Assembly (NCBI GenBank): GCA_018813295.1
Contig: JAHJBZ010000066.1
Coordinates: 11,231 to 75,230 of the forward strand
Source: Patescibacteria group bacterium
GTDB taxonomy: Bacteria > Patescibacteriota > Gracilibacteria > UM-FILTER-43-11
Reading direction: 5' to 3'
DNA: 64,000 bases
The notes beneath the pieces were generated by a model. The model was not told the origin of the DNA, made no database searches, and saw only the letters and a program-made list of their open reading frames with translations. Of the stretch, positions 5,065-58,830 are shown in pieces. Each line of letters starts with the position of its first letter. Position 1 is the first letter of the stretch. Made by a program: the position numbers and the translations under genes.

Positions 5065-5430
5065 CTATTGCTTAGGCTTTGGAGGCTTTGGTAAACCTAA
5101 TTCCTCCATAATTGAATGTGCTTCCTGCATTTTAGCTCGTCCCTCCTCAATCAATTGATGAGCTTCTACAAATTGATCCCAATTGCTCTCATTAATTATT
5201 TCTAAAATCTTAGCACCGCGTGGTGACTCGCTAACAAGCGAATACCAGGTATCATAATCTCCGTTACTAATAGCTTCGTGAATTGCTGAGCGCATTTCCT
5301 GACGCTCTTCAATGGTTGGCTTTGAAACCTCTTCCTCAGACATTTCATCTGCATAAGATGCCCCAAGCATAGTGAATGTAAAGACAAGTATTAATGTCAT
5401 CACTGCACCAATAGTCGTATACTTTTTCAT
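5065..5430 (-). CDS. Small secreted or anchored helical protein
   Basis: 121 aa. N-terminal signal/anchor MKKYTTIGAVMTLILVFTFTMLGASYA, acidic helical body, KPPKPKQ tail. Confidence 0.55.
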   Translation of the reverse strand: MKKYTTIGAVMTLILVFTFTMLGASYADEMSEEEVSKPTIEERQEMRSAIHEAISNGDYDTWYSLVSESPRGAKILEIINESNWDQFVEAHQLIEEGRAKMQEAHSIMEELGLPKPPKPKQ

Positions 5431-5620
5431 GTTATTTATAAATTAAAAAATTAAAATTTTGAGTGGCCACTCTAAAGCTTCACTAATTAATACACCTGTT
5501 AAAAAATTTTCTTTCAGAAAATTTTTTAAATTTAAGAATATTGAACGCTGAATTTATATTTTTAAAATAAACCCCTGCCTATAAAAACAGATTTAAAATC
5601 AAATCAAAAATCTAAAATCG

Positions 5621-6376
5621 CTAATCAATATTCTTAAATCGATCAGGAGGAGTTGGTGGCCTCATCTTCCCTTCAGGTCTCACCGGCGGCTTCCAAAGCA
5701 TTATCCTCTTAGCCTTAAATTCATCCTCATCAATCTTTTCTCCAAGTACGCCAATAGATTGACGTAACTGCAATCTAAAATCATCCTTAAATTCAGCATC
5801 GGTAATATCCACTGTCCATTTTGTTCCTTTAAAATCAATCATCATAATTTGCTCATCAGACATTAAATTGATAATGCGACCAACAAGCGCACCTCTGTCT
5901 GGTACAACCATAGCTCCATCACGCTTCTCTTTCCAGGTTGCATAAGGAGGAATACTTTCAGCTAAAGCCGTATCAACAGAATGTCCTACTCCTACGAAAT
6001 ATAAACCGGACCCAAATAGCAAAGAGATCACCACTGAGGTTATTACAACCATAACCGGACTGTATCTATATCCCTTTTTGGTTTTTTCAAAAAGCATTGT
6101 TGCCAAAAACATTATAAGACCCAATATTGCGATCCATATATAAGGAAGTACCAACATAAAAGAATGTATTGCACCATTTCCAACATAACGAACAATCTCC
6201 CAATCGACTCCGGTAATTACCCGCAAAATTACACTGATGGCCAAACTACCAAGAACTACAGAAGTAGCTAAAGCTACCCAGAGCAACACATGAAGCAGAA
6301 CAAACTGCCAACGCGACCTTGGTTGAATTTTATTCTTCTTAATTGTGCCTAAAATGGATTTGCTTAGCTTCGTCAT
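5621..6376 (-). CDS. Membrane protein, possible anti-sigma partner of the adjacent ECF sigma
   Basis: 251 aa, multiple TM helices then a soluble C-terminal domain. It starts 4 nt downstream of the ECF sigma gene on the same strand. The anti-sigma role is inferred from context only. Confidence 0.45.
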   Translation of the reverse strand: MTKLSKSILGTIKKNKIQPRSRWQFVLLHVLLWVALATSVVLGSLAISVILRVITGVDWEIVRYVGNGAIHSFMLVLPYIWIAILGLIMFLATMLFEKTKKGYRYSPVMVVITSVVISLLFGSGLYFVGVGHSVDTALAESIPPYATWKEKRDGAMVVPDRGALVGRIINLMSDEQIMMIDFKGTKWTVDITDAEFKDDFRLQLRQSIGVLGEKIDEDEFKAKRIMLWKPPVRPEGKMRPPTPPDRFKNID

Positions 6377-14971: not shown

Positions 14972-15042
14972 TTCTGAGACATTATTATACACTATTTTCT
15001 TACATGGCCAACCGCATTCGTAATTTGTGTTTAGTGATTGGT

Positions 15043-15077
15043 GGCACGAGGCACTAGGCACCAGGCACGAGGCACAA
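15043..15077. repeat. Degenerate heptamer tandem array (ggcacNa x5)
   Basis: ggcacga ggcacta ggcacca ggcacga ggcacaa, located between the holB start and tRNA-Leu. Confidence 0.9.
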
Positions 15078-15150: not shown

Positions 15151-15235
15151 GCCTGGGTGGTGAAATTGGTATACACGAAAGACTTAAAATCTTTTTCCTT
15201 CGGGAGTGAGGGTTCGAGTCCCTCCCCAGGCACCA
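15151..15235 (+). tRNA. tRNA-Leu (anticodon UAA), long variable arm, CCA encoded
   Basis: GCCTGGGTGGTGAAATTGGTATACACGAAAGACTTAAAATCTTTTTCCTTCGGGAGTGAGGGTTCGAGTCCCTCCCCAGGCACCA. The anticodon loop is CUUAAAA. This is a type II tRNA. Confidence 0.9.
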
Positions 15236-24718: not shown

Positions 24719-24794
24719 AATATTTGATTAGTATTAAGTTTTAAGTCTTAAGGACTAAGCTAGCTTACAGCTTATGACTTAAGACTTATGACTC

Positions 24795-26320: not shown

Positions 26321-26455
26321 ATAAAAAGGTCCCGCCTGTGCCCCTCCGATAGGAATTGATTGAAATTGATAATCTATTTCTATCTATTTCAATCGGGATG
26401 GCCCAGGAAGGACAATCAGGGGGCGCCTGCCTGCCGGTAGGCAGGAGGCGAGGGG

Positions 26456-30854: not shown

Positions 30855-31619
30855 ATGTACAAAAAAGAATTCCAAATCACAGAGAATGTAAGCAACAACT
30901 CATTTTCATACGACAAGCGCACTAATCCGACAATAACTGTTCCAGATATTGTAGACGGAAGTATTGATGATGTGAAAATCGGAGACAAAATTGTTTTTGA
31001 GGATTTTGATGAAGATGGAAATCTAAAATCATGCACTGGTCTACAAAATTTCATTAGGACAGTTCATCCGACAACAAAAAAACCAGTGATAATTGTTGAT
31101 AATCACAATCATGTTTTTTATTTTTGGTATGAAGCCAGAACAAACGGGCAAATAAATAATGGAGCTACTCTTATACACATCGACCAACACAAAGACATCC
31201 GAAAACCGGCAGAAAAACTAAACAACTCCGACGATTTAAATAGTGTTTTCAAATACACCAACTCTATCTTAAACGTCGGAAACTACATCCCCCCTGCGAT
31301 GGAAGAAGGGCTTGTTAGAAAAGTAATTCCGATCACCAGTGAATCAGAGATAAATAAAAACACCCCCGAAGGCGCGCCGGTCCCCCCTGATAAGGGGGTT
31401 AGGGGGTTTGCGCGCCTTCGGGGAACCGAATCATCGTTAATCGTTAACATTGATCTCGACTTCTGGGCACCGGAAATGGATTATATAGATAATAAATTAA
31501 AAATCGACACTACAAAAAAATGGATGGAAAAAGCCGACCTAATCACAATCGCAACCAGCCCGTTTTTCATAGATCAAGAATTAGCATTAAAAGTTTTAAA
31601 GGAATTACTTTATAATTAG
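30855..31619 (+). CDS. UPF0489-like (arginase/deacetylase-fold-like) protein carrying an in-frame palindromic insertion
   Basis: 254 aa. VIIVDNHNHVFYFWYEA, LIHIDQHKDIRKP and NIDLDFW resemble UPF0489 motifs. This assignment has low confidence. Confidence 0.6.
   Translation: MYKKEFQITENVSNNSFSYDKRTNPTITVPDIVDGSIDDVKIGDKIVFEDFDEDGNLKSCTGLQNFIRTVHPTTKKPVIIVDNHNHVFYFWYEARTNGQINNGATLIHIDQHKDIRKPAEKLNNSDDLNSVFKYTNSILNVGNYIPPAMEEGLVRKVIPITSESEINKNTPEGAPVPPDKGVRGFARLRGTESSLIVNIDLDFWAPEMDYIDNKLKIDTTKKWMEKADLITIATSPFFIDQELALKVLKELLYN
31364..31423. repeat. 60-bp GC-rich palindromic element inserted in frame in a coding sequence
   Basis: A perfect 14-bp inverted repeat, ccccgaaggcgcgc (31364-31377) / gcgcgccttcgggg (31410-31423), encloses a cccccctgataaggggg hairpin. 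The 20-mer gataagggggttagggggtt (31389-31408) is identical to 39342-39361. Confidence 0.85.
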
Positions 31620-31620
31620 C

Positions 31621-31664
31621 TTAATCCTTAAGACTTAATCCTTAAGACTTAATCCTTAAGACTT
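31621..31664. repeat. 14-bp tandem repeat (ttaatccttaagac x3) abutting a start codon
   Basis: Three perfect copies end 2 nt before ATG 31665. The same word family occurs at 24740-24794 and 39373-39400. Confidence 0.95.
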
Positions 31665-33155
31665 ATGAAATTCCCATTCACAAAAAACGAAATCTTTTTC
31701 GCCGCAGTTTACTTTGTACAAGCAGCTGTCGGAATTTCCGCCCTCGCTCAATTCTTATTTACGCGCAATGAACTCGGTTTGAGTTTTATTGAACTTGGGA
31801 TATTGGCAGCACTTCCAACAATCTCCTGGAGCATAAAACCGATTTATGGATTTTTAACGGATTTAGTACCAATTTACGGATACAGACGCAGGCCATATTT
31901 GCATATAATGCCGCTAATAACAATGCTCAGCTGGCTTTGGATTTGGCAATTTGCAGACTCTTTTATCAGTTATGCCATTCCAATTATGATTGCGAATATC
32001 GGACTCGGATTTACCGATGTAATTGCAGACGGACTGGTTGTTCAGCAATCAGATGAAAAAACTGCCGGCCGATATCAGTCCATCTGTTGGGGGTCGCTAA
32101 CCGTTGGCGCAATTATCACAACATTCCTTTCCGGGCTTTTAATCGGACGAGATATTGTCAGCATAAAAGGCATGTTCCTGATCACTGCATTAATACCACT
32201 TATCACATTTACACTTTCTTTCTTTATTAAAGAAAGACGTATATCCGATCGTTCTGAACTTAAAACCCATAAAGCAATAAGTCCAAGTTATATTTATACA
32301 GCTGTGTTAGCTTTTATTGTAACAATAGTTTTACTTTCTCCATATGAAGGCCAAAACATGGCCACTGCATCCTTTGGTGTCATAGGAATTTGGTTCGTAT
32401 GGTTTGGCGGATACTTCAAACACCTTATGGATATTAAAATTATCGGCAAAAGTATATTTGCGGCCGCAATATTTATATTCTTCTGGCGTTTCACGCCAAG
32501 TTTCGGTGCACCATGGTCGGACTACCTCCTCAATCAAGTTGGCGTAGACCAGGAAACTTTTGGTTACTTTGGGGTGGTTAGTTATATAGGTTGGTTAATT
32601 GGATCAATATTATTTGCGAAATATTTTGATAAATTTAACCTAAAAAAAGTTTTACTTTGGACAATTGTATTGAGTGCCATTTTAGGGCTCAGCCAACTGG
32701 GACTTACAAAGATTGAACTTGGAAATGCGATTGGCAGTAACGTAATTATTAAATACGTAGGAGCTGTAATCTCAGCCCCTGTATTCCTTATCGCACAAGG
32801 AAGAGATTTTTGGACTCACTTGATGCAGTACGATGGTTTAATTTTCCTGAATTTCTTCCTCGACTTCTTCCTTGGAATTTTATATATGATTTCATTCCTC
32901 GCACTTCTAAAATTTGTTGCACTTAGCACACCAAGGAATCTGGAAGGAACAAACTTTGCCGTATTCGCATCCATTATGAACTTTGGACTTGTATTTGGAT
33001 CGATTAGCGGAGGATACATTTACGAACATATTCAACATGGTATGTTTGGAATAAACGGTCTTCAAATCACCGTACTCCTCGGCGCCATAACCTCCCTCAT
33101 CGCCCTAATTGTTTTGCCATGGATTAAGACAGATCATATGGCACACGAATCTTAA
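31665..33155 (+). CDS. MFS transporter, folate-biopterin transporter (BT1)-like
   Basis: 496 aa, about 12 TM helices. The N-terminal segment LPTISWSIKPIYGFLTDLVPIYGYRRRPYL is typical of the BT1/FBT family. Confidence 0.7.
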   Translation: MKFPFTKNEIFFAAVYFVQAAVGISALAQFLFTRNELGLSFIELGILAALPTISWSIKPIYGFLTDLVPIYGYRRRPYLHIMPLITMLSWLWIWQFADSFISYAIPIMIANIGLGFTDVIADGLVVQQSDEKTAGRYQSICWGSLTVGAIITTFLSGLLIGRDIVSIKGMFLITALIPLITFTLSFFIKERRISDRSELKTHKAISPSYIYTAVLAFIVTIVLLSPYEGQNMATASFGVIGIWFVWFGGYFKHLMDIKIIGKSIFAAAIFIFFWRFTPSFGAPWSDYLLNQVGVDQETFGYFGVVSYIGWLIGSILFAKYFDKFNLKKVLLWTIVLSAILGLSQLGLTKIELGNAIGSNVIIKYVGAVISAPVFLIAQGRDFWTHLMQYDGLIFLNFFLDFFLGILYMISFLALLKFVALSTPRNLEGTNFAVFASIMNFGLVFGSISGGYIYEHIQHGMFGINGLQITVLLGAITSLIALIVLPWIKTDHMAHES

Positions 33156-33156
33156 A

Positions 33157-33236
33157 ACGAATAGTAGCTCGTATTGTAGTCCACTATTCGAGCCACAACT
33201 TGAGCCACCATTCGAGCCATCCGCCGCAGGCGGGGA
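33157..33236. repeat. Dispersed 12-mer mirror-repeat spacer (cgaatagtagct / gagccacaa family)
   Basis: acgaatagtagctcgtattgtagtccactattcgagccacaacttgagccaccattcgagccatccgccgcaggcgg. It is related to 47382-47476 and 54523-54568. Confidence 0.85.
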
Positions 33237-33238
33237 TC

Positions 33239-34006
33239 TTATTTATCCCCCAATCTCTTTAAAGCTCTCAAAGCCTCGATCGGCATCATCCAGATTGTTG
33301 TATTTGATTGATCGGAAGAAAGATCATTAATAGTTTGCAATGTGCGAAGATGTAAGGCGCCATCTGCCTCAGAAAGAGTCTTGGCAGCTTTTTTCATATT
33401 CTCGGCAGCAGCCACCTCACCTTCTGCCTTAATAATAACAGCTCTTTTTTCACGTTCAGCTTCGGCCTCTTTCGCCATTGTTCTTTTCATGTTATCGGGC
33501 AAACCGATATCCTTTAATTCCACAGCTTCAACTTTTATCCCCCAGGGATCACTGGCTTTATCTACAATTATTTGAATACGACCAGCAATCTCATCACGAT
33601 TGCGAAGAAGCTCATCAAGCGTAGTCTCACCAACTGCATTACGCATCGTAGTTTGAGCAAGCTGACTAACTGCAAAATAAAAATTTTCAACCTCGATAAT
33701 AGATTTTGCAGCATCACTAACCTTATAATAGATAACCGCATTAATACGAATGGAAATGTTATCTTTTGTAATTGCCTCTTGATCAGGTACATCAACTACC
33801 TTTGTACGAAGATCAACCTTAATCATTCTCTGAAAAACAGGAATAACAATTCGCCAACCGGGATTTTTCATTCCGGAATATTTTCCTAACGTAAACATCA
33901 CACCTCGCTGATATTCATTTACCTGCTTGATCAAAATCACAATTAAAATAATGAGGGGCACAGCCAATGTACTCAGCATAGAAAAGAGAAATGCAAAATC
34001 ATCCAT
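33239..34006 (-). CDS. SPFH/Band 7 (stomatin/prohibitin-like) membrane protein
   Basis: 255 aa with an N-terminal TM helix. SPFH core (VVDVPDQEAITKDNISIRINAVIYYKV..) and an EAEAEREKRAVIIKAEGE coiled coil. Confidence 0.9.
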   Translation of the reverse strand: MDDFAFLFSMLSTLAVPLIILIVILIKQVNEYQRGVMFTLGKYSGMKNPGWRIVIPVFQRMIKVDLRTKVVDVPDQEAITKDNISIRINAVIYYKVSDAAKSIIEVENFYFAVSQLAQTTMRNAVGETTLDELLRNRDEIAGRIQIIVDKASDPWGIKVEAVELKDIGLPDNMKRTMAKEAEAEREKRAVIIKAEGEVAAAENMKKAAKTLSEADGALHLRTLQTINDLSSDQSNTTIWMMPIEALRALKRLGDK

Positions 34007-34129: not shown

Positions 34130-35761
34130 ATGCCTCAATGCACAACTTGCTCCAATTCATTTGAAACCCGAGATGCAGATCGTACGTTCTACAAAAAATT
34201 TGATGCACCGGATCCCAAAAAATGCCCGGACTGCCGTTTGCAGCAACGATTAAATTTTCGTAATGAACGTACTCTCTACAAACGTACCAGTAATCTTTCC
34301 GGAAAAAGTATGATCTCCATTTATTCTCCGGAAAGCAAATATCAAATATATAGTACTGACGAATGGTGGAGTGACAAATGGGATGGCCTGAACTACGGAC
34401 GAGAATTTAATTTCAGCAGGCCTTTCTTTGAGCAGTTCCAAGATTTACTATTAAGAATACCTCGCATTACCCTTTTTAATGTAAACCCAACCAACAGTGA
34501 ATACTGCCAACAGGCTTATAACAACAAAGGATGTCATTTATGTATGGTGGTAACAGATTGTGAAGATTGCATGTATATCTCTCATACCAACCACGCTAAA
34601 GATTCCTTTGATTCAACATACACGCATCACATGGAATTATGTTATGAATGCTTAGATAGCAACCAGCTATATGGATGTATAGAATGCCAGAGTTGCCAGG
34701 GCTCAAACGGACTTATGTATTGTTACGATTGTATTGGATGCAGAGATTGTTTTGGTAGCTGGGGACTGCGTAACAAAGAAAATTACATTTTTAATAAACG
34801 CTATTCAAAAGAAGAATATAAAGAAAAAATAAATTCACTTGAATTAGGTAAATCACCTAATTATCTAGAATACAAAAAATACTTTCAGGATTTGATGAAA
34901 ACTCGGGTACACCGGGCTAGCCGAAATATTAATATTTTTGACTCAACTGGAAACTACCTGATCAATGCGCAAAACTGTCATGAATGTTTTGATTCATTTC
35001 AAATTCAAGACTGCGCGTATTGCACATGGATTTTTGAAAGCAATAACTGCCAGGATGTATATGGACTTGGTGGTAGTGGATGGGTATATAACTGTCTTGG
35101 AAATGAGAAGGTGAACAATGTAGCTTTCAATACTTTTGTTTCTGATGGTGGAGATATTTATTACAGCGATCTTTGTTTTTATTCTATGAATTTATTTGGC
35201 TGTGCTGGATTAAGGAACAAAAAACATTGTATTTTTAATAAGCAATATTCACCGGAAGAATATGAAAAATTAAGAGCTCAGATAATCGAACATATGAAAA
35301 AAACAGGTGAATGGGGTGAGTTTTTCCCGGTTTCACTTTCACCTTTTGCATACAACGAGACCGCCGCTCAAAATTATTTCCCATTAACAAAAGAGGAGGC
35401 AGAAAAACAGGGATTTGCATGGAAAACTTCAAAGGAAATTGATCAAAAAGAGCAAATATATAAAATACCGGAAGATATTAAAGACGTTCAGGATGACATC
35501 ACTGAAAATATTGTGGTTTGCTCATGCAATAAGCGTTATCAAATCGATCCAGTGGAATTAAAGTTTTATAAAGAAAAGAATATTCCTATTCCACTCAAAT
35601 GTCATGACTGCCGTTACGCAGATCGTTTAAAGCTGAGAAACCCACGAAAACTATACAAACGAAATTGTGCCAAATGTAATGCCGAAATTCAGACAACTTA
35701 TGCGCCGGATAGACCGGAAGTGATATACTGCGAGCAGTGCTATTTAAAAGAAGTGGATTAA
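34130..35761 (+). CDS. Cys-rich zinc-ribbon/repeat protein, paralog A (543 aa)
   Basis: N- and C-terminal CxxC...FYxK...P.P..CP.CR...R...RN.R.LYKR modules. The middle is internally duplicated Cys-rich repeats, each ending GLRNK..(I/C)(F/I).NK.YS.EEYE. It also carries the conserved GEWGEFFP.S.SPFAYNET.AQ.YFP motif. Confidence 0.8.
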   Translation: MPQCTTCSNSFETRDADRTFYKKFDAPDPKKCPDCRLQQRLNFRNERTLYKRTSNLSGKSMISIYSPESKYQIYSTDEWWSDKWDGLNYGREFNFSRPFFEQFQDLLLRIPRITLFNVNPTNSEYCQQAYNNKGCHLCMVVTDCEDCMYISHTNHAKDSFDSTYTHHMELCYECLDSNQLYGCIECQSCQGSNGLMYCYDCIGCRDCFGSWGLRNKENYIFNKRYSKEEYKEKINSLELGKSPNYLEYKKYFQDLMKTRVHRASRNINIFDSTGNYLINAQNCHECFDSFQIQDCAYCTWIFESNNCQDVYGLGGSGWVYNCLGNEKVNNVAFNTFVSDGGDIYYSDLCFYSMNLFGCAGLRNKKHCIFNKQYSPEEYEKLRAQIIEHMKKTGEWGEFFPVSLSPFAYNETAAQNYFPLTKEEAEKQGFAWKTSKEIDQKEQIYKIPEDIKDVQDDITENIVVCSCNKRYQIDPVELKFYKEKNIPIPLKCHDCRYADRLKLRNPRKLYKRNCAKCNAEIQTTYAPDRPEVIYCEQCYLKEVD

Positions 35762-35844: not shown

Positions 35845-37476
35845 ATGAAAAACTGTAAAAACTGCACCACCGAATTCGAAATAGCAGAACAGGATCGTAA
35901 ATATTACGAAAAAATTAACGTGCCCGAACCTACACACTGCCCAACATGCCGCCAACAACGGAGGTATGCAATTCGCAATGAAAGAAATCTATACAAAAGA
36001 AAATGTGGCATGTGTAATAAGGAATTGGTATCGATGTATTCCCCAGACAAACCATTCCCTATTTACTGCCCAAGCTGTTGGTGGGAGGGTGATTGGCATG
36101 GGACTAGCTACGCACAGGAATTTGATTTTAGTAGACCCTTTTTTGATCAGTTTAGAGATTTACAAAACAAAGTTCCACGAATCAGTTTGTATTTAGTTAA
36201 TTCGGAAAATTGTGACTACTGCAACTTTGTTGGTGACTGCAAAAATTGTTATTTAACGTTCGGATCTGTTTATTCAGAAGATTGTTTATACGGTTCTGCA
36301 TACTATTCAAAAAACTGCATGGACAATTTGGTGACCAGAGAATGTGAACTATGTTATGAGTGCACGGACAGCAGAAAATTATATAACTGTTTGTATTGCC
36401 AGGACTGCTATCATTCAGATCATCTGCTTTTTTGTTATGACCTGCAGGGGTGTAGTGAGTGTATTGCATGTGCGGGGCTAAGAAATAAAAAATATCACAT
36501 CGAAAATAAGCCTTATTCAAAAGAGGAATATGAAGCAATCAAATCTAAAATAAATTTTTGCAGCTCAAAGCAATTAGAAGGTGTACATGAGCAGCTAAAG
36601 AAGATGAAATTGGAAATTCCACATCATTTTATGCCAAATAGCAACGTACAAAACGTAAGCGGTACTCATATTTACAATTCAAAAAACACCCACCACTCAT
36701 TTTATGTAGATAGATGTGAAGACTGTGCATACTGCATGCAGGTTGTAGACTTAAAAGATTGCTACGACAACAATTACACCGAAGAAAATGAATTGTGTTA
36801 TGAATATCTTGGAATGTATGGGGCGAAAAATACTTTTTACTCAACTTTCTCCAGACATTCATACGATGTTTTTTATTCTGAATACACTATTAACGCCAAA
36901 AATTTATTTGGATGTAGCAATATTCACAAAAAGGACTTTTGTATTTTGAACAAGCCTTACTCAGAAGAAGAATATAAAGAACTTGTTCCAAAAATAATCG
37001 ACCATATGAAGGAAGCCGGTGAATGGGGAGAATTTTTTCCTATAAGCCACTCACCATTCGCATACAACGAAACAGTTGCGCAAGAATATTTCCCAATGGA
37101 AAAGGGGGGAGCCACTGGCAAGGGTTACAAGTGGAAAGACCCAGACCAAAAAGAATGCCAACCTCAAACAACCGAAGTTCCTGTAGAGATTAAAGATGTT
37201 CAGGATTCAATTTTAAATGAAGTTTTAGCTTGCAGCGACTGCAAAAAAAATTACAAAATAATTTCGCAGGAATTAAAATTTTATCGCAATATACACCTGC
37301 CTATTCCAAAAAAATGCCCCGACTGCAGACATAAAAACAGACTCTCGCTCCGCAATCCTCGCAAACTATTCAGCAGGCAGTGTAATAAGTGTAATACAGA
37401 TATTCAGACAACTTATGCACCAGACAGACCGGAGAAAGTTTATTGTGAAAAATGCTATCACGAATCGGTATACTAA
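35845..37476 (+). CDS. Cys-rich zinc-ribbon/repeat protein, paralog B (543 aa)
   Basis: Same length and architecture as 34130-35761, roughly 40% identical by eye. It retains the second N-terminal ribbon (RKCGMCN...YCPSCWW) that is degenerate in paralog A. Confidence 0.8.
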   Translation: MKNCKNCTTEFEIAEQDRKYYEKINVPEPTHCPTCRQQRRYAIRNERNLYKRKCGMCNKELVSMYSPDKPFPIYCPSCWWEGDWHGTSYAQEFDFSRPFFDQFRDLQNKVPRISLYLVNSENCDYCNFVGDCKNCYLTFGSVYSEDCLYGSAYYSKNCMDNLVTRECELCYECTDSRKLYNCLYCQDCYHSDHLLFCYDLQGCSECIACAGLRNKKYHIENKPYSKEEYEAIKSKINFCSSKQLEGVHEQLKKMKLEIPHHFMPNSNVQNVSGTHIYNSKNTHHSFYVDRCEDCAYCMQVVDLKDCYDNNYTEENELCYEYLGMYGAKNTFYSTFSRHSYDVFYSEYTINAKNLFGCSNIHKKDFCILNKPYSEEEYKELVPKIIDHMKEAGEWGEFFPISHSPFAYNETVAQEYFPMEKGGATGKGYKWKDPDQKECQPQTTEVPVEIKDVQDSILNEVLACSDCKKNYKIISQELKFYRNIHLPIPKKCPDCRHKNRLSLRNPRKLFSRQCNKCNTDIQTTYAPDRPEKVYCEKCYHESVY

Positions 37477-37564: not shown

Positions 37565-39295
37565 ATGAACTTTGTTACAACCCCAAACACCACCAAACAA
37601 ATTGACCTCCTTCTAATCAATCCCGACTTCTCAAAAAATGAGTTAGGTGTTACATCAGCTCCGGAAAATCATTTAGGACTTAATAGGTTGGCGGGGTATT
37701 TGGCAAAAAAGGGACACAAGTGTGCAGTGATCGACACAACTGGACGTGAGAGCGGAACAAGTGGACCGGAAAATTTAGGTAAATGGATCGCAGACCACGC
37801 GCAGGAATACAAATCAATCGGATTCCATACAAATTCCTGGAACATAAATCATATTCTCCGTGCACTTAACGAGTGCAGATCTGCATTGAAAAACAAAAAA
37901 GTTTTATTTGGAGGACCGCTTGCAAGTTCTGAGCCAAAAAAAATGACTGAGCTTTTAATGGAGTCCGGACTCCAAAACATTGGAGTTGTGGAAGGACTCG
38001 GGGAAAAGATTACAGACGAAATTTTGAATAAAAATAACCTGTCGGACGTAAATGGACTCTGGTGTTTTGAGAATGGAAAGTTTAAAGAGGGTGAAAAAGT
38101 GGCCCTAACACAAGAGGAATTCGAAGGCACCCCATTTCTTGATCTTGAATACAATACTTTTTACCAAAATTACTACAAACCGGTAATCGAAAGTGGTGAT
38201 TTGGATAATTTCAGCATGGAAATTATTTTCGGTTCACAGGGGCTGGATGTAAACCGCGGCTGCCCTTTCAAATGCACCTATTGTTCGGTACCGCAATATG
38301 AAAGAAAGCTAATTACCTACTCACCAAAAAGGGTTGTTGATGAATTGGAATACCTAGCCAAAGAAGCAGGGTTTTTCATGTTCACTTTCACCAACTCAAA
38401 CATAATGTTTTATGACCAGTTATGGATTCAGGAGTTCTGCCGGGAAGTTATCGGGAGAGGAATGAACGATTATATAAATTGGACCGCATATCATCACCCA
38501 AGCATCATTGCGAAACTCCCGTTATCCGATTTCAACCTAATGAGAAAAGCTGGATCGGATAATATTGTATTCGGAATACAGAGTTTTGAAGAAAAAATCT
38601 TAAAACTTTTTATGCGGCCGCTGAATACCAGAGAGCTAACAGAAGTAATCAGAGAAAAAACCTTAAACTCCAAACAATATTTAACCGTAGACTACATAAC
38701 AGGCGTACCAGGGGAAGATTTGGACGTGATAGAAGATGCATTTAACTACTTTATCGACAACGAAATTGAATGTCGCAACTATCAGCTGAAGTTTTACCCA
38801 AATACAAAACTGCCAACTATGGATTTGGACATGTCGGATCATGATTTGGTACCAATAACAGGAGAACTTGCACCGGAATTAAATGCATATGCAATAGTTT
38901 CAAAGCATCCAAACCCAAAAGCAGCAAAATTGGACGGGATGTTACGTGAGGCAAATGAAGATTTAACAAAAAACCGCCCACCAAGACTTGGAAAATATAT
39001 TGTCGACTCCGCGGAAACCGCAAAAATGCTGTACGAAAAAGAAATTCCAGACAATCCAAACATTCCGGATAAAGTAAAACGCGCCATGCGCATCGCACTT
39101 CACGAAATGCTCAATCCAAAAAAACGTGAGCAGACTTTGGAAGGGCTGGATCCAATGGAAATGATGAAAAAGGTAATAATGGCAGGAAACGACGCCCCGC
39201 CAATGGTTAAAGCAATGCAGGAGAAATTGAAAAATGAATTAGGAGAAGGAAAATTTAAGGAATTAAGAGATAAATACGGACAAAATGGTATTTAA
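37565..39295 (+). CDS. B12-binding-domain radical SAM enzyme (class B-like)
   Basis: 576 aa. N-terminal Rossmann-like segment (LLLINPDF...LAGYLAKKGHKCAVIDT). Radical SAM cluster motif GCPFKCTYCSV (CxxxCxxC). Confidence 0.85.
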   Translation: MNFVTTPNTTKQIDLLLINPDFSKNELGVTSAPENHLGLNRLAGYLAKKGHKCAVIDTTGRESGTSGPENLGKWIADHAQEYKSIGFHTNSWNINHILRALNECRSALKNKKVLFGGPLASSEPKKMTELLMESGLQNIGVVEGLGEKITDEILNKNNLSDVNGLWCFENGKFKEGEKVALTQEEFEGTPFLDLEYNTFYQNYYKPVIESGDLDNFSMEIIFGSQGLDVNRGCPFKCTYCSVPQYERKLITYSPKRVVDELEYLAKEAGFFMFTFTNSNIMFYDQLWIQEFCREVIGRGMNDYINWTAYHHPSIIAKLPLSDFNLMRKAGSDNIVFGIQSFEEKILKLFMRPLNTRELTEVIREKTLNSKQYLTVDYITGVPGEDLDVIEDAFNYFIDNEIECRNYQLKFYPNTKLPTMDLDMSDHDLVPITGELAPELNAYAIVSKHPNPKAAKLDGMLREANEDLTKNRPPRLGKYIVDSAETAKMLYEKEIPDNPNIPDKVKRAMRIALHEMLNPKKREQTLEGLDPMEMMKKVIMAGNDAPPMVKAMQEKLKNELGEGKFKELRDKYGQNGI

Positions 39296-39341
39296 CAAAA
39301 AGGCGGGAATGGTTCCCCCTGCCTGCCCCGCAACGGCGGTG

Positions 39342-39361
39342 GATAAGGGGGTTAGGGGGTT
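39342..39361. repeat. Intergenic copy of the 20-mer found inside the 31364-31423 insertion
   Basis: gataagggggttagggggtt is identical to 31389-31408. It is embedded in a GC-rich patch (ccccctgcctgccccgcaacggcggtg). Confidence 0.9.
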
Positions 39362-39394
39362 CTCACCTTTTGCTTAATTCTTAAGACTTACTCC

Positions 39395-40579
39395 TTAAGA
39401 CTTTTTTCCCGCTTCCAATTCCTCCATTACATATTCTGTCACCTCATCAGCAATCTTTCCTTTAATATAACCATAAGCTTTTAGATCTATCTTAACCGCA
39501 GCAAGCTGAATAGCAGGAGATGGATTATCAATCAATTCAATTAAAAGTGGATTTTGTTTAAGTGCTTCTAATACAACCCTTTCATCTGACTCCATACCCA
39601 TTGCAAGAATATGCCTAAGTGCACCCACATCATTAGAAACAGCAGCAAACTGATTTAATGCATCTGCATCTCGGAAATGTTTAATTAATGATCCATTTTT
39701 ACCAAGCAGCTCATATAGCTCTACCGGTGACAATGAAAAATTATTGATAAGAGGAATTGCATCTAAGTTTTTTTCAAGCGCTTTAGCTTGGACATCTTTT
39801 GATGGATTTTCAATAAGCTCAACCAATCTCCAATCCTTCTCAACCGCAAAAAGTTGAACTGATTGCTCTGGGGTGATTCCGGCCTCAAGAATAACTCTGA
39901 ACATTTGAGGATTCTTCTCAACTGCAAGGAGTTGAACCGCTGTTGACGGAGTTACTACGGAACTAACAAGAGTTTCAAATGCCGCTATATCCTTCTTAAC
40001 TAATGCAATTTGAACTGGTTCTTCTGGAATTATTCCGACACCAACAATAGCCTCAAATGCCTCCACACCATGCTGTTCAACTGCAGCTTTTTGAGCTTTT
40101 TCTGATGGGATAATCTCCATTGCAATAATACGCCTAAGCGCTTCCAATCCACTTTCCTGGTTAGAGGAAAGGCTAACGGCAACAACTTGCAAATCTTCGT
40201 CTTGGGCTAAATCACCAGCATATTTAATCGCCCTTCCATCTTGCCCAACTGCTTCACGTATACGTTTCTCCGATGGAGTTATTCCCATTCTAATGATTTG
40301 ACCAAGAAAAGCTCCATTTGCCTCAATCACAGCATCTTGACCTGCCTCCGATATATTCTGCATACTTTTTACAATTCTACCCCTACTTAATTCAATAAGT
40401 TCAATCATTCTGTCGTCAGGTACTTCTACACCTGTAGCCAGTACATTTTTCAGTGCAGTACGATCCGCAGCCGGAGCTGACTGCTCTGGTTGACCTGATC
40501 TAGCTGCCTGACCTGATTGATCCTGCTTATTGTCACCATCTTCTGCTTGTGGTCTTGTTACTGTTCTTTTTATAGCCAT
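39395..40579 (-). CDS. Tandem helical-repeat protein (HEAT/DUF4116-like periodicity)
   Basis: 394 aa. The N-terminal ~45 residues are disordered and Q/A/G-rich. About nine ~36-aa repeats follow with a recurring (I/T)P(S/E)E..Q.(A/L)AV motif. The stop codon lies inside a 14-mer repeat unit. Confidence 0.7.
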   Translation of the reverse strand: MAIKRTVTRPQAEDGDNKQDQSGQAARSGQPEQSAPAADRTALKNVLATGVEVPDDRMIELIELSRGRIVKSMQNISEAGQDAVIEANGAFLGQIIRMGITPSEKRIREAVGQDGRAIKYAGDLAQDEDLQVVAVSLSSNQESGLEALRRIIAMEIIPSEKAQKAAVEQHGVEAFEAIVGVGIIPEEPVQIALVKKDIAAFETLVSSVVTPSTAVQLLAVEKNPQMFRVILEAGITPEQSVQLFAVEKDWRLVELIENPSKDVQAKALEKNLDAIPLINNFSLSPVELYELLGKNGSLIKHFRDADALNQFAAVSNDVGALRHILAMGMESDERVVLEALKQNPLLIELIDNPSPAIQLAAVKIDLKAYGYIKGKIADEVTEYVMEELEAGKKS

Positions 40580-43818: not shown

Positions 43819-44138
43819 TGACAGACGAGGGATATAAAAAGATTTTTGTCGGATTATCTGCATTAGCTATTACTTTATTTGGCATTATTGTGACAAGCTT
43901 ATTTTTTGATGTAGAATTTGATGAAAAAAACCTTTGGATAGGAGGAATAATTGTTTTCCTTTCGGTTTTTCTTTTTTATACAACACCAATTTACGGGAAA
44001 ATCATCACGCTTATCGTCTCAATTGGTGCAATTTCCTACTTTTTATCTCAAACAACCGGCTTAGCTATTCATTGGAGTCTAGGGATAGCGCTTAGTTTTA
44101 TGGGAATAGTCAGCTTCGGCCTAATGGTTTTGGAATAA
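43818..44138 (+). CDS. Small membrane protein, translationally coupled to the preceding gene
   Basis: 106 aa, three or four TM helices. TAATG stop/start overlap. Confidence 0.6.
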   Translation: MTDEGYKKIFVGLSALAITLFGIIVTSLFFDVEFDEKNLWIGGIIVFLSVFLFYTTPIYGKIITLIVSIGAISYFLSQTTGLAIHWSLGIALSFMGIVSFGLMVLE

Positions 44139-44282
44139 TTGTCTGAACTGTGATTTATGTGATTGAAATGATTTTTTTGATTTGTATTTTCGTAGAGACG
44201 CATTGCAATGCGTCTCTACGAATGTTTTATATATAAAAATCATATCCATCACTGTAATCATGAGAAATCACAGTTCAGACAA
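44139..44282. mobile_element. MITE-like element, copy A (144 bp)
   Basis: Termini are ttgtctgaactgtgatt (44139-44155) and aatcacagttcagacaa (44266-44282), a perfect 17-bp TIR. The central hairpin is cgtagagacgcattgcaatgcgtctctacg. It starts directly after a TAA stop. Confidence 0.8.
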
Positions 44283-44290
44283 TAAACAAA

Positions 44291-44323
44291 AAACCCCCGT
44301 ATCAATGATACGAGGGGCTTTTG
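44291..44323 (+). terminator. Rho-independent terminator
   Basis: cccccgtatc-aat-gatacgagggg stem with one bulge, followed by ctttt. Confidence 0.6.
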
Positions 44324-44994: not shown

Positions 44995-46233
44995 TTACTG
45001 CGCTTGCTCTTGAAGTTCCTTTAGAATTTCAATCATTTCTTCGTACTCAGCACAACGAAATTGACACCCATTTTCTTCATTAAAATACCATCTTCCAATA
45101 CAATCAGGAAAACCCGGACGCGGACCTATTGAAAGCGGTGTTAGTAGATTATATACACAACATTCGTCTTTTTCCTCACTTGTCTCGAAATCCTCACAAT
45201 ACTCACTTATAGAATCACCTTCACCTTCCCCCTCTCCTCCAAAATACTCCTCTAATTCCTCTTCTGTATAGCAATGAAATACACATAATCTTATTACATT
45301 ATCAAACTGCCATTCGCCAATGCACCCTGTTTCAACACCAACATTCTGCTGTGTGCAACAAGTATTACGCACTTCTTGAGATCCAATGCTGCAATCAGCT
45401 TCTTCATCTTCACCTTCATCTTCCTCTTCCGGTTCTTGTTCCTCTTCTTCCTTTTCGTTCTCACATCGATACTCACATAACCTACTTGAGTTATTAAACA
45501 CCCAATGACCATAACCACTGCAATAAGGAACCTGTACGCCTTCATTTGCTCTTTCACAGCAATAATTTCGAATAGCTTGAGATCCGACACTGCAATCCCC
45601 GCCTGTTTCTTCTTCCTCTTCACCTTCTTCACCTTCCCCCTCCCCCTCTCCTTCACCTTCACCCTCATCTACTTCCTCTGGTTCAAAACCATCCCAATTT
45701 TCCGTATCCCAGACAACCACATCATCCCCACCGCTAATTGATGCCTCTCCACCTCCAAAGCTTATTTCATCTACAGAATTAGTATCAATCAAAAAGGAAT
45801 CATCATTTCCAATTTCATCGCCATTAACTACTATACTCGACCCATTTGATAACTGAATATCGAGCAGAACCCCCTCAGGAACAGTAATTGTACCGCTTAA
45901 ACCCAGCCATTCATCAGATAAACTAAATCTAGCCCCGCCATTATCTGTGCTAAAAAAACGAATTTTACTGATTCCATCCTCATCTCCTTCTATATCAACC
46001 GTAATTTTATCGGTTTTAGCGGTAACAATTTTTAAATTAGATCTATCAACGTTTTCCAAAACAAAAACACCTTCCTGTACTTCAAATGATTGATGAAAGC
46101 CAGCCTGAGTAGTAAAAAGTTTTACATAAGCAGCGCCTAATAAGAGAACAATAATGGCAAGGGCTGCCAGATAATATTTAGTCATAGGATTTTTGTTATT
46201 TTCCAAAAGCATTCTAACATCCCAAACCCGCAT
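44995..46233 (-). CDS. Membrane-anchored surface protein with three copies of a novel 6-Cys module
   Basis: 412 aa with an N-terminal TM anchor and a beta-rich domain. E/G-rich linkers (EGEGEGEGEGE) separate three C-x(9-13)-CC-x(10-17)-C-x(3,4)-W-x-F-x(5-7)-C-x3-C modules. Confidence 0.7.
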   Translation of the reverse strand: MRVWDVRMLLENNKNPMTKYYLAALAIIVLLLGAAYVKLFTTQAGFHQSFEVQEGVFVLENVDRSNLKIVTAKTDKITVDIEGDEDGISKIRFFSTDNGGARFSLSDEWLGLSGTITVPEGVLLDIQLSNGSSIVVNGDEIGNDDSFLIDTNSVDEISFGGGEASISGGDDVVVWDTENWDGFEPEEVDEGEGEGEGEGEGEEGEEEEETGGDCSVGSQAIRNYCCERANEGVQVPYCSGYGHWVFNNSSRLCEYRCENEKEEEEQEPEEEDEGEDEEADCSIGSQEVRNTCCTQQNVGVETGCIGEWQFDNVIRLCVFHCYTEEELEEYFGGEGEGEGDSISEYCEDFETSEEKDECCVYNLLTPLSIGPRPGFPDCIGRWYFNEENGCQFRCAEYEEMIEILKELQEQAQ

Positions 46234-46306: not shown

Positions 46307-47380
46307 ATGAATCCAAATATCACCAAAATTTTTGACCTGGCCGTTAACCGTAATGCTTCTGATATTCACTTTCAGACAGGTAAAAAACCTGTAATCAGAA
46401 TTAACGGAAAACTGTATTTAGTGGACGACGCGGAAATATTCCAGTTAATGGAAAATACTCCGGAATTCCAGGAGCTTATAAACAAAGAACAACAAAAGTA
46501 TTTTGTCGAAAACGGAAACGTTGATTTTGCTTTCACATATGACAACGACTATCGCTTTAGAGGTAATGTGTATAGACAGCAAAACGGACTTTCTCTGAGC
46601 CTTCGCATTATACGAAATAGAATTCTTAGCTTTGAACAACTTAACTTGCCCCCAATATTTAAAGACATTGCGGAGAATTATCGCCAAGGCTTCTTTTTGG
46701 TTGTCGGGCCAACAGGACAGGGGAAAACAACAAGCATGGCAGCCATCTTGAGTCATATCAATAAGCATAGAGAAGAGCATATTGTTACTATTGAAGACCC
46801 GATTGAATATATAATTCAAAATGAAAAAAGCATAATTGAACAACGAGAAGTTGGACTGCATACTTCGTCTTTTCAAAGTGCCCTAAGGTCTTCTATGAGA
46901 CAGGATCCGGATATTATTATCATTGGGGAAATGAGGGATCAGGAAACTATGCAAGCTGCATTAACACTTGCAGAAACGGGTCATTTAGTTTTCTCAACAA
47001 TGCATACTAACAATGCTCCTCAAACAATCGATAGAATAATTGACGCATTTCCGGAACATAAACAAAAACAAATCCGCATTCAATTGGCCAGCACTCTAAC
47101 CGGTGTGATCTCTCAGCGCTTAATTCCGGGAGTAAAAGATGAATTAGTATATGCATATGAACAATTACTGACTACGGATGCAGTACGCAACATTATTCGA
47201 ACTGAAAAAATTGAACAAATCTACAATGCTCTACAAACCGATGAGGAGAGCGGTTTTATAAGACTTGAAAAATGTCTCGCAGAACTTGTAAAAGAAGAAA
47301 AAATATCTAAAGAAAATGCTTTAGCATTTTCTACAAGCCGAGAACTTGTTGATATGTTTTTAGAACTTCAACCAGCCTAA
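46307..47380 (+). CDS. pilT: Type IV pilus retraction ATPase PilT
   Basis: 357 aa. Walker A GPTGQGKTT, plus EDPIEY, RQDPDIIIIGEMRD and TGHLVFSTMHT. Confidence 0.9.
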   Translation: MNPNITKIFDLAVNRNASDIHFQTGKKPVIRINGKLYLVDDAEIFQLMENTPEFQELINKEQQKYFVENGNVDFAFTYDNDYRFRGNVYRQQNGLSLSLRIIRNRILSFEQLNLPPIFKDIAENYRQGFFLVVGPTGQGKTTSMAAILSHINKHREEHIVTIEDPIEYIIQNEKSIIEQREVGLHTSSFQSALRSSMRQDPDIIIIGEMRDQETMQAALTLAETGHLVFSTMHTNNAPQTIDRIIDAFPEHKQKQIRIQLASTLTGVISQRLIPGVKDELVYAYEQLLTTDAVRNIIRTEKIEQIYNALQTDEESGFIRLEKCLAELVKEEKISKENALAFSTSRELVDMFLELQPA

Positions 47381-47381
47381 T

Positions 47382-47476
47382 ACGAATAGTAGCTCGAATA
47401 GTAGCTCAAGTTGTGGCTCGAATGGTGGACCACAATACGAGCAACTATCCGAGCCACAATACGAGCCACCATCCGA
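47382..47476. repeat. Dispersed 12-mer mirror-repeat spacer (cgaatagtagct / cacaatacgagc family)
   Basis: cgaatagtagct cgaatagtagct caagttgtggct cgaatggtggac | cacaatacgagc aactatccgagc cacaatacgagc caccatccgata. The halves are about 70% reverse-complementary. Confidence 0.9.
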
Positions 47477-54522: not shown

Positions 54523-54568
54523 ATCCGAATAGTGGTCCGCCGCGGCGGAAGCCACAATCCGAGCCACA

Positions 54569-55039
54569 ATGCGTAATATAAGAAAAACAAAAAAGGGTTT
54601 CATCGCAATTATCAGCCTGCTAATAATCACAACCATAAGCATGATATTTGCTATGTCGATGTTAAAAGACGGCGTGGATAATGCGTCGCTTTCATTAAGC
54701 AGTATTTATTATGAAAATGCGCGCATTAATGCAACTACATGCCTGGAAGATACCCTGTATAGAATAAAACAGGAGGAGATATTCAATGAAGATTTAGATT
54801 ATACGATCACAGATGAAGATTCATGCACAACTACAATTACCTGGTATGACCCACAACAAACCGCTCCGGGAATTGTGGAAAGATTGGCTGATTTAGAAGT
54901 CATTGGAGTAAGCAATAATTTTACACGTACATTTAGTTACGGATTAAAAGTATCCAGATTTGATGTAAATTATTCTGACGGATCATTGGATTATATGAAC
55001 AATATTGACATTATTTCTATCGAGGAATTAACCTCATAA
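54569..55039 (+). CDS. Minor pilin, PilX-like (no Glu+5)
   Basis: KKG|FIAIISLLIITTISMIFAM N-terminus, 156 aa. Confidence 0.6.
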   Translation: MRNIRKTKKGFIAIISLLIITTISMIFAMSMLKDGVDNASLSLSSIYYENARINATTCLEDTLYRIKQEEIFNEDLDYTITDEDSCTTTITWYDPQQTAPGIVERLADLEVIGVSNNFTRTFSYGLKVSRFDVNYSDGSLDYMNNIDIISIEELTS

Positions 55040-58673: not shown

Positions 58674-58830
58674 TTGTCTGAACTGTGATTCTCTTGATTA
58701 AATGATTTCTATGATTATTTAAACGGTTTTTCTGTAGAGACGTCCCGCTTAGCGGGACGTCTCTACGATATTTGTTTATATAAAAAATCATGACCATCAG
58801 TACAATCATCAATAATCACAGTTCAGGCAA
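58674..58830. mobile_element. MITE-like element, copy B (157 bp)
   Basis: Termini are ttgtctgaactgtgatt (58674-58690) and aatcacagttcaggcaa (58814-58830), with one mismatch. The central hairpin gtagagacgtcccgcttagcgggacgtctctac is at 58734-58766. It fills the gap between the convergent pilin 2 and recG ends, abutting the recG stop. Confidence 0.8.

Follow-up and report, generated by a model that had tools for sequence, protein, structure and literature searches.

The question raised by this locus is how a GC-rich palindromic block of exactly 60 nt came to lie in frame within a conserved enzyme gene of a small, AT-rich genome. The locus lies in a 64,000-nt stretch of DNA, referred to in full as the window (positions 11,231 to 75,230 of contig JAHJBZ010000066.1, forward strand), from a Patescibacteria group bacterium of the Candidate Phyla Radiation (CPR), and the gene encodes a UPF0489 protein. 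Our analysis indicates that the block is, close to certainly, foreign repeat DNA placed in frame. As a complete explanation, we consider it likely that nested selfish palindromes resembling repetitive extragenic palindromes (REPs) were moved by a transposase of the REP-associated tyrosine transposase (RAYT) type and tolerated in a permissive loop; the RAYT mechanism of palindrome movement, taken alone, has about even odds. The features concerned are the following.

30855..31619, + strand: host gene, encoding a UPF0489 / peptide-arginase-like (ureohydrolase-fold) protein of 254 aa, supported by its open reading frame (ORF), Pfam PF12640, an AlphaFold2 (AF2) model and a fold match.
31364..31423, no strand assigned: composite GC-rich palindromic insert, 60 nt, codons 171-190 (PEGAPVPPDKGVRGFARLRG), absent from baseline orthologues.
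31364..31377, no strand assigned: left arm of the outer palindrome, CCCCGAAGGCGCGC, translated P-E-G-A, belonging to a perfect inverted repeat.
31381..31408, + strand: inner small dispersed hairpin repeat, 28 nt, TCCCCCCT-GATAAGGGGGTTAGGGGGTT, sitting in the apex of the outer palindrome.
31410..31423, no strand assigned: right arm of the outer palindrome, GCGCGCCTTCGGGG, translated A-R-L-R-G.
39313..39361, + strand: second copy of the inner repeat, intergenic, TTCCCCCTG[CCTGCCCCGCAACGGCGGTGG]ATAAGGGGGTTAGGGGGTT, its hairpin loop split by ~21 nt.

The insert reads CCCCGAAGGCGCGC-CGGTCCCCCCTGATAAGGGGGTTAGGGGGTTT-GCGCGCCTTCGGGG over window positions 31364-31423, and the host ORF translates it as residues 171-190. 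The initial annotation had reported a 60-bp block of high GC in this UPF0489-like gene, exactly 20 codons long, read through by the ORF and bounded by a perfect 14-bp inverted repeat that encloses a second hairpin, and all of these observations held in both sequence and fold. Complementarity between the two outer arms (14 + 14 nt) was perfect, and the 32-nt spacer between them holds TCCCCCCT-GATAAGGGGGTTAGGGGGTT. The insert is foreign to its host gene in both base composition and codon usage: GC content was 72% compared with 35% in the rest of the gene, GC at third codon positions was 65% compared with 35%, and the mean synonymous-codon fraction was 0.26 compared with 0.44, with rare codons such as CCC, GCG, CGG and GTC. 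The folding energy of the insert (-48.2 kcal/mol) was far below that of dinucleotide shuffles (-31.2 ± 3.5 kcal/mol; z = -4.9), none of the 200 shuffles folding as well. In a hairpin scan of the window (stem of 9 bp or more, loop of up to 44 nt), the insert was the sole strong GC-rich hairpin within any coding sequence. A terminator scan found no terminator-like site on the + strand at the element, and the sequence 3' of the hairpin, GAACCGAATC, has no T-run. Rfam returned two tRNAs only for the whole window at the gathering score; for the local region at E ≤ 10, the best match reached 22.6 bits against a gathering score of 60, with nothing relevant.

The host ORF matched Pfam PF12640 (UPF0489) with E 2e-10, and the named close homologues of the protein are Candidatus Peregrinibacteria or Patescibacteria UPF0489 proteins, which marks the window as CPR DNA, from a Candidatus Peregrinibacteria genome. 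The AF2 model, built with 44 homologues, had a mean predicted local distance difference test score (pLDDT) of 90.3 and a predicted template modelling score of 0.89. In a fold comparison it came closest to OspR, a peptide arginase (8brp, E 1e-6); metformin hydrolases and arginases ranked next, and these closest folds identify the host protein as a ureohydrolase-fold enzyme. Residues 171-190 were the sole low-confidence stretch in the model (pLDDT 60, then 53) and were unstructured, with helix 163-168 on one side and, on the other, strand 195-200, which bears the DLDFW motif in invariant alignment columns. The model thus places the insert in a surface loop just before a probable metal-ligand strand, and the structure prediction proposed earlier as a check agreed with a disordered surface loop (pLDDT 53-60 against a mean of 90). 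A class II ribonucleotide reductase gene lies upstream of the window UPF0489 gene, as it does at loci L085 and L090. Downstream, a 14-nt tandem repeat CTTAATCCTTAAGA, which contains CTTAAG, extends over 31616-31664 from the UPF0489 stop codon to the ATG of the next gene. This repeat breaks assemblies, because three other assemblies of this population end inside it (window 31649-31651); related copies lie at 39369-39403, beside the second copy of the 20-mer treated below, and at 24742-24794.

Loop length was measured from NVGNY to DLDF in 109 homologues. The segment spans 44-48 aa in 64 of the 109 and at least 49 aa in the other 45, and it is 64 aa long in the window protein. Without the 20 residues the segment falls back to the modal baseline of 44 aa, so these residues are an insertion, which is the outcome that the initial annotation had anticipated for an alignment of orthologs. 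No counterpart of the segment was found in distant relatives (Acidobacteriota, Clostridia and Gracilibacteria).

The same loop was found to be occupied repeatedly. Among the protein homologues, at least 24 enlarged loops encode palindrome-derived peptides, for example PEGAETFPRLQG, PEGAQALARLQG, PESGQSIAHFQG, PEGAIGQSRLR, PVGVQNFEPLRG and RRDARFCVST. In orthologue DNA the insertion point is shared and corresponds to a conserved proline codon, nine residues past an ITSE motif. Palindromes with 11-20-bp arms occupy the insertion codon of the window gene in at least 9 other species, at loci L085 to L090, L002, L004 and L014, and three further loops carry other fillers, as listed here.

L085: CCCTGAAGGCGCGGAAAC / GTTTCCGCGCCTTCAGGG, 36 nt, perfect.
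L086: CCCTGAAGGCGCGCAAGC / GCTTGCGCGCCTTCAGGG, 36 nt.
L002: CCTGAAGGAGCGGATCA / TGATCCGCTCCTTCAGG, 34 nt.
L087: palindrome of 38 nt.
L088: palindrome of 34 nt with one mismatch.
L089: palindrome of 40 nt.
L004: CCCCGTAGGGGTTCAAAA / TTTTGAACCCCTACGGGG, 36 nt.
L014: TTTCGTAGAGACGCAAGATTTTGCGTCTCTACGAAA, 36 nt.
L090: palindrome of 56 nt, with 15-bp arms enclosing a 26-nt nested insert.
L003: short imperfect hairpin of the CCTGCCTGCCGG type, with AAATCAC heptamers on both flanks.
L001: four GCACGAR heptamers in tandem.
L005: five GAAGYTC heptamers in tandem.

Seven of the loop palindromes, 34-40 nt in length, are perfect through the centre, the exceptions being L088 with its mismatch and L090 with its nested insert. 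An arm of the window type, CC(C/T)GAAGG(C)GCG, is present at the same codon in L085, L086, L002, L088 and L089. The palindromes of L004, L014 and L090 contain GTAG, but it is paired with CTAC within the stem. In a neighbour-joining protein tree computed with the loop removed, palindrome, heptamer and empty loops were interleaved. Within the clade marked by 'SERELxxAxPKxPFI', only P0065 (L014) carries a palindrome, and since the rest of the clade has empty loops, at least this palindrome is an independent gain. A census of 590 kb around the orthologues revealed almost no other strong hairpin within long ORFs; the UPF0489 loop is therefore a true hotspot and not one tolerated site among many.

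An ungapped alignment of ten loop palindromes showed Watson-Crick pairs in 97.8% of cells and two-sided changes in 16 of 18 pairs (44 cells). Stem pairs 3-14 displayed zero one-sided changes and zero G-T pairs, and complementarity often continued through the centre with zero loop. This signature points to inverted repetition at the DNA level rather than to selection on RNA structure. It could have arisen by insertion of different family members, by copying of the arms from each other, or by both.

Several repeats elsewhere resemble these loop fillers. An intergenic GC-rich hairpin GCCTGCCTGCCGGTAGGCAGG at 26427-26443 has the exact 17-mer CTGCCTGCCGGTAGGCA in common with the UPF0489-loop hairpin of L003, in opposite orientation. 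Five copies of the heptanucleotide GGCACNA form an intergenic tandem repeat at 15034-15075, near a tRNA gene (15151-15232), and resemble the GCACGAR units of the L001 loop. The chorismate-binding protein of locus L280 contains an in-frame heptamer run that gives the heptapeptide run SDERRET.... Long intergenic inverted repeats with ends TTGTCTGAACTGTGATT...AATCACAGTTCAGACAA and runs resembling the heptamer TGATTTN lie at 44126-44295, 58676-58834, 62697-62835, 60893-60931 together with 61389-61416, and 2051-2089. Two of them carry a central perfect GTAGAGACG... palindrome (44189-44222 and 58734-58766), and the same hairpin family occurs in frame in the UPF0489 gene of L014 and the RAYT gene of L009. 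This long inverted-repeat family looks similar to transposable elements of the miniature inverted-repeat class (MITEs), to REPINs (inverted REP doublets) or to bidirectional terminators.

The inner repeat is dispersed in its own right. Its 20-mer GATAAGGGGGTTAGGGGGTT occurs exactly twice in the window, at 31389-31408 and 39342-39361, as the initial annotation had noticed, whereas shuffles gave zero expected occurrences. The second copy sits between the convergent genes 37565..39295 (+) and 39395..40579 (-). The search for further copies that had been recommended returned 79 exact matches across 75 metagenome loci. Free-standing hairpin repeats of ~28-30 nt, with the consensus (a)TTCCCCCT-GATAAGGGGGTTAGGGGGTT, account for 48 of the 79, and the window inner repeat differs from this consensus by 1 nt. 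Such copies are nearly always intergenic, mostly on contigs of very low GC content (22-28%). An inverted partner lies at most 110 nt from 17 of the 48; in the window both the inner and the outer element are singlets. The other 31 matches ('context b') lie within a high-copy non-coding element of ~350-400 nt. This element (31 loci of L097-L165, for example L142, L107, L125 and L155) shows apparent terminal inverted repeats TATATTAAGTCTAAAAACTAAC...GTTTCAAAATAGACTTAATATA, is found on contigs Ga0209518_* and Ga0154385_*, often at contig ends, and is possibly MITE-like, with a structured RNA as an alternative. A CTTAAAGACTTAAG motif adjoins the 20-mer in 31 metagenome copies.

Extra DNA interrupts the hairpin apex in the window insert, in the intergenic copy at 39313-39361, in L090 and in the 'context b' copies of the metagenomes, and judged from these sequences, hairpin apexes are recurrent points of insertion or rearrangement. 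The most natural reading of the window insert is that an outer palindrome was already resident and received the inner repeat later. The earlier description of the block as a dispersed, non-native element was accordingly right about insertion and dispersal, but the block comprises two nested elements, not one, and the 20-mer belongs to the inner element only.

The outer element is of the type CC(C/T)GAAGGCGCG...CGCGCCTTC(A/G)GG. A strict pattern, CCTGAAGGCGCG-N8-12-CGCGCCTTCAGG, was scanned in 185,579 species genomes and gave 17 loci: 6 in CPR bacteria, 10 in Spirochaetota/Leptospirales and 1 in an alphaproteobacterium. Four of the six CPR loci belong to the Peregrinibacteria metagenome-assembled genome (MAG) JACRIE01, which holds at least 5 outer-family copies, one to Peregrinibacteria fen_1329 and one to Patescibacteria MAG021. 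The strict-family loci are L187, L235, L262, L272, L279, L284, L287 and L290-L292 on the one side and L283, L285, L286, L288, L289 and L217 on the other. The spread over two lineages could reflect horizontal transfer, a link between host and epibiont, or mis-binning. A cross-phylum family suggested by the looser pattern CTGAAGGCGCG-N0-30-CGCGCCTTCAG (more than 120 loci in many phyla) was discounted as evidence: the ~1e8 hairpins in 596 Gb yield any GC-rich 11-mer stem hundreds of times, so that matches to this pattern are uninformative, and some of them were unrelated REP families in Pyrinomonadaceae and one Verrucomicrobiota MAG. A phage origin was also rejected, since among 2.9 million viral contigs the 20-mer had 1 match and the strict outer pattern 0.

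In CPR genomes, in-frame copies of the outer family were found in RecF, where the solved RecF structure 5z68 is gapped across that stretch, in a 930-aa P-type ATPase, in a chorismate-binding, PabB-like enzyme (L280), in an LTD/PKD protein and in a PGA_cap protein of a Buchananbacteria MAG. All five gene copies are read in the frame (C/T)CT-GAA-GGC-GCG, giving P/S-E-G-A ... R-L-Q, and one of the two other frames of the family contains TGA. The initial proposal to search for the 14-bp inverted repeat thus gave a divided answer: the exact arm is unique in the window, and relatives occur both at the orthologous codon and in frame in other genes of other CPR genomes. Unrelated loci moreover have cores in common. 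The UPF0489 insert of L085 and the chorismate-binding insert of L280 have the same 32-nt core, EGAIRESRLQ is common to L247 and L288, and EGATPASRLQ to the UPF0489 protein P0087 and the RAYT of L289. Such identities make it hard to uphold that each palindrome evolved entirely in situ. At some loci of the wider family, complementarity extends into locus-specific flanks, as with AATCAC...GTGATT at L285 and TTTTTTAT...ATAAAAAA at L215.

The outer family is also physically linked to transposase genes. At L289 a copy lies in frame (5147-5180) within a Peregrinibacteria RAYT, assigned by NCBIfam NF047646.1 (84.4 bits against a cut-off of 80) and Pfam Y1_Tnp. A genome scan with the Peregrinibacteria RAYT gave 3 loci only, and further RAYTs came to light only when a profile made from such proteins was run against all loci collected. 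A RAYT gene lies directly upstream of UPF0489, in an operon-like arrangement, at L009 (2389-2994), L012 (2511-2993) and L014 (232-789); the RAYT stop and the UPF0489 start are 3 nt apart at L009, and L012 and L014 are arranged alike. At L005 a RAYT (5598-6209) lies ~1.9 kb downstream of UPF0489. The RAYT copies of L012 and L014 are split by an internal stop or frameshift, and L013 has a perfect 34-nt GTAG-type palindrome at the RAYT position without a RAYT. Since RAYT is normally a single-copy gene, the linkage between UPF0489 and RAYT is far above chance.

The RAYT ORFs themselves hold in-frame palindromes directly after the HUH strand, encoding VETQDFASLR (L009), RKGAINRALT (L014) and VRTQDFVSLQ (L012), and an Omnitrophota RAYT likewise encodes VGNGLKPFPT after this strand. 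In locus coordinates the palindromes lie at 2713-2740 (L009), 520-549 (L014), 2220-2248 (L296) and 2341-2392 (L295). RAYTs of three phyla (Peregrinibacteria, Spirochaetota and Omnitrophota) each have one or two such perfect palindromes, mostly just after the HUH strand, and no description of in-frame palindromes within RAYT ORFs was found in the literature. The nearest relative of the Peregrinibacteria RAYT, at 34% identity, is in a Spirochaetota MAG (L295), where TGAAGGCGACG palindromes of one family lie both upstream of the gene and within it. In the classical REPtron layout, too, the cognate repeat lies beside the transposase gene.

We propose that an outer REP-like palindrome settled in the permissive, disordered surface loop of the UPF0489 enzyme and that the 28-nt inner hairpin repeat may later have landed in the apex of that palindrome. 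Because the insert totals 60 nt and the family is stop-free in the frame CCN-GAA-GGC-GCG, the ribosome would read through and add 20 residues before the conserved NIDLDFW strand. These residues are most likely a neutral passenger, without use to the enzyme and merely tolerated. As has been proposed for REPs, movement would involve a RAYT-type transposase (IS200-like, Y1/HUH) that recognises a single-strand hairpin and cleaves or joins it. The hotspot may owe its existence to a present or ancestral linkage between UPF0489 and RAYT, to the tolerance of the loop for insertions, and to resident palindromes that would draw more insertion or conversion at their apex. Template switching between the arms may help keep resident copies perfect.

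A number of observations weigh against this explanation. In the window the outer 14-nt arm pair occurs once, with no further match to the arms even at up to 2 mismatches (0.05 expected by chance), and the element bears no unpaired GTAG or CGTC tag. Neither a target-site duplication nor any direct repeat was recognised at the insert ends, which are flanked by ...AAACACC and GAACCG.... No presence/absence polymorphism was seen among the four gene-carrying assemblies, which were 100% identical over 2.6-16 kb. A profile search of all six-frame ORFs (E ≤ 1e-3) detected no RAYT in the 64-kb window, and Pfam detected no transposase among its first 20 ORFs. Orthologues with a RAYT directly upstream mostly have no loop palindrome, L014 being the exception, and in the clade of the window gene a ribonucleotide reductase, not a RAYT, lies upstream of UPF0489; for these two reasons the linkage argument for the hotspot is indirect. 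Translation of the insert is read from conservation of the frame. Centre-perfect palindromes, finally, could arise or stay perfect by template switching without any transposase.

This last point leads to the rival that deserves most attention, an in situ origin, in which the palindrome arose at a fragile loop site and stays perfect through intrastrand template switching (fold-back synthesis, quasipalindrome correction) with no transposase. Centre-perfect, zero-loop hairpins at 7 of 10 loops fit it, as do differences between species that, at stem pairs 3-14, are always matched on the other arm without G-T intermediates, the unseen target-site duplication, complementarity that reaches into locus-specific flanks at several wider-family loci (L285, L215), and a window in which the searches made found no transposase. 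It does not account for the same 32-nt cores or peptides in unrelated genes of different genomes (L085/L280, P0087/L289, L247/L288), nor for an inner element that is an exact copy of a repeat matched 79 times elsewhere, the near-complete restriction of the strict family to two lineages, and the association of palindromes with RAYT genes. We therefore judge an exclusively in situ origin unlikely; as upkeep of perfect resident copies, template switching may partly complement the explanation by RAYT-moved, nested palindromes. Selection for a structure, whether an mRNA hairpin (pausing translation ahead of the active-site strand, or serving as a signal for stability or processing) or a protein-binding DNA palindrome, would suit the very stable fold (-48 kcal/mol, z = -4.9), the rare codons of the insert, and a hairpin that stands at the same codon in many species with pairing kept despite sequence divergence. 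Yet 64 of 109 homologues, sister lineages among them, lack an insert, and the same site houses unrelated palindrome families and non-palindromic heptamers. The palindromes recur in unrelated genes and intergenic DNA, G-U pairs are lacking, the would-be loop is also complementary, which selection on RNA does not demand, and neither an Rfam family match nor a + strand T-run for an intrinsic terminator was found. Such selection is improbable, and we rank it somewhat below the in situ origin.

Another possibility is that the insert is never translated, through ribosome bypass or mRNA excision as with the GC-cluster 'byp' elements of Magnusiomyces mitochondria. The setting is analogous, with GC-rich palindromes in coding regions of an AT-rich genome (PMC8811140), and the hairpin is very stable. 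Bypass or excision would, however, lift any constraint on frame and stops, and for this reason the evident constraint speaks against it: all inserts examined at the site are in frame and stop-free (at least 24 different palindrome-type loop peptides and all genome loci found by tblastn), and copies in other genes always use the stop-free frame CCT-GAA-GGC-GCG. This possibility is very remote. An assembly or chimera artefact might be suspected, given that assemblies of this population break at the repeat ~30 nt downstream of the gene. Four assemblies (a pair of NCBI MAGs and a pair from Logan), however, all carry these 60 bp in this gene, which excludes an artefact; independent species sampled in other studies have homologous palindromes at the matching codon, and this explanation is effectively refuted.

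Compared with known systems, the element is closest in several respects to REPs, which have been proposed to be mobilised by RAYTs (Bertels & Rainey 2011, PMC3116915). Like REPs, which are short palindromic repeats of 20-40 bp, the palindromes at the orthologous site measure 34-40 nt, the outer arms of the window 14 + 14 nt and the inner repeat 28 nt; copies are both intergenic and in frame within genes, including a replication/repair gene (here RecF); RAYT genes in the lineage carry or adjoin palindromes; and some inner-family copies form inverted doublets in the manner of REPINs. Intragenic REPs of the GTAG/CGTC type are known in several phyla, often in replication/repair genes (Di Nocera et al. 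2013, PMC3733652), recB carries different REPs at about one site in a pair of Xanthomonas species, and insertion of REPs into target palindromes that were already there is known (both PMC3733652). Unlike the GTAG/CGTC superfamilies, the window palindromes lack the defining unpaired end tag. They also depart from described REPs in that the related loop palindromes are perfect through the centre with 14-20-bp arms, the host is a CPR bacterium and the window has no RAYT, a single loop has been filled again and again, in at least 24 homologues, with several families and with heptamer repeats, and RAYT ORFs themselves hold palindromes in frame. Against the extragenic criterion of REPs, the window copy and several CPR copies lie inside coding sequences.

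The initial annotation had pointed to in-frame palindromes in Rickettsia; this is correct, and the intragenic REPs show that the phenomenon reaches beyond Rickettsia (PMC3733652). Rickettsia palindromic elements are ~100-150 bp long, number 44 in R. conorii, lie in frame and encode a conserved peptide of their own (PMC10969869). They share with the present elements the in-frame placement in unrelated housekeeping genes of a small AT-rich genome and the addition of a tolerated peptide, but here the units are 28-40 bp (12 codons) or a composite nest of 60 bp, the encoded peptide depends on the core of the palindrome, the sequences are unrelated, and the host belongs to a different phylum. For the GC clusters of yeast mitochondria, PMC8811140 describes in-frame insertions in var1 that make the gene 'expandable', and clusters that are mostly intergenic, merge and shuffle, and act as recombination hotspots. 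They likewise are short GC-rich palindromes in an AT-rich genome (here 72% against 35% GC); unlike the present elements they are mitochondrial and eukaryotic, have terminal AG/TAG repeats read as target-site duplications, which were not seen here, and have no RAYT-type enzyme. In contrast to MITEs (~50-500 bp, with terminal inverted repeats and a target-site duplication), the units here are shorter, no end duplication was recognised and a parent insertion sequence was not identified. Given the missing end tag, the different size and the lack of target-site duplications, we did not count the window element as a member of the REP, Rickettsia palindromic element, MITE or GC-cluster class.

A further resemblance is offered here only as a lead. 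Heterocystous cyanobacteria reportedly contain dispersed hairpin repeats of 21-27 nt (small dispersed repeats, said to have been described by Elhai and colleagues in 2008) that nest and are associated with heptameric short tandemly repeated repetitive sequences. The inner 28-nt element and the heptamer runs of L001, L003 and L005 recall this pairing, although the sequences and the phylum differ. Our literature searches found no paper on such elements in CPR bacteria or Peregrinibacteria, in line with the initial impression that they were undescribed for this kind of genome. In-frame palindromic insertion is an already established phenomenon, which limits the surprise. New features are the nesting, the lack of a GTAG/CGTC tag, the setting in a CPR bacterium and the repeated turnover at one enzyme loop in dozens of species, together with very small perfect palindromes that give 12-residue units and a physical link to RAYT genes which carry repeats in frame.

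The window contains other features that stand apart from the insert. Intergenic arrays of a 12-nt unit, CGAATAGTAGCTC or its inverse GAGCCACAATAC, flank GC-rich hairpins of the CCGCCGCGGCGG type at 33145-33241, 47370-47476 and 54524-54576, and complementarity between the arms at 33158-33217 and 47392-47451 reaches 90% across 60 nt. Two tandem paralogous cysteine-rich proteins of 543 aa (34130-35761 and 35845-37476) have many CxxC motifs and internal repeats; in precomputed Pfam results the first had no match and the second one faint match. A 412-aa ORF on the - strand (44995-46233) coincides with a GC skew of -0.52 over 45-46 kb and contains CTTCACCTTC-type repeats; from these repeats and the strand composition, it would encode a Glu/Gly-rich repetitive protein.

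A bolder extension of the preferred explanation, which we put forward tentatively and consider doubtful as a whole, is that the UPF0489 loop is a long-lived intragenic landing pad of a REP-RAYT system active in CPR bacteria. UPF0489 would once have been, and in some species would still be, the downstream operon partner of a RAYT, its loop would have offered the first tolerated slot for a transposase-flanking REP, and an occupied loop would keep drawing REPs, apex insertions and heptamer fillers. If this is true, one enzyme loop has been rewritten dozens of times across Peregrinibacteria. The in-ORF REPs in RAYT genes hint that they could feed back on transposase expression. The sharing of the outer family and of the closest RAYT relative with Spirochaetota/Leptospirales would imply that a REPtron passed horizontally between a CPR lineage and a lineage that may be its host.

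Little mobile DNA is usually expected in the small genomes of CPR bacteria. The present results indicate that REP-like selfish DNA and RAYT-type transposases occur in these genomes. For annotation, strings such as PEGA....RLQG, VETQDFASLR and DKGVRG in proteins from MAGs flag repeat insertions, not homology, and assemblies can break at the repeats. The hotspot provides dozens of natural alleles at one site for studying the gain, upkeep and replacement of palindromes. For protein evolution, one loop in a conserved enzyme can gain 12-20 palindrome-dictated codons, encoding an arbitrary peptide, time and again; similar additions occur in a transposase, RecF, a P-type ATPase and a chorismate-binding enzyme.

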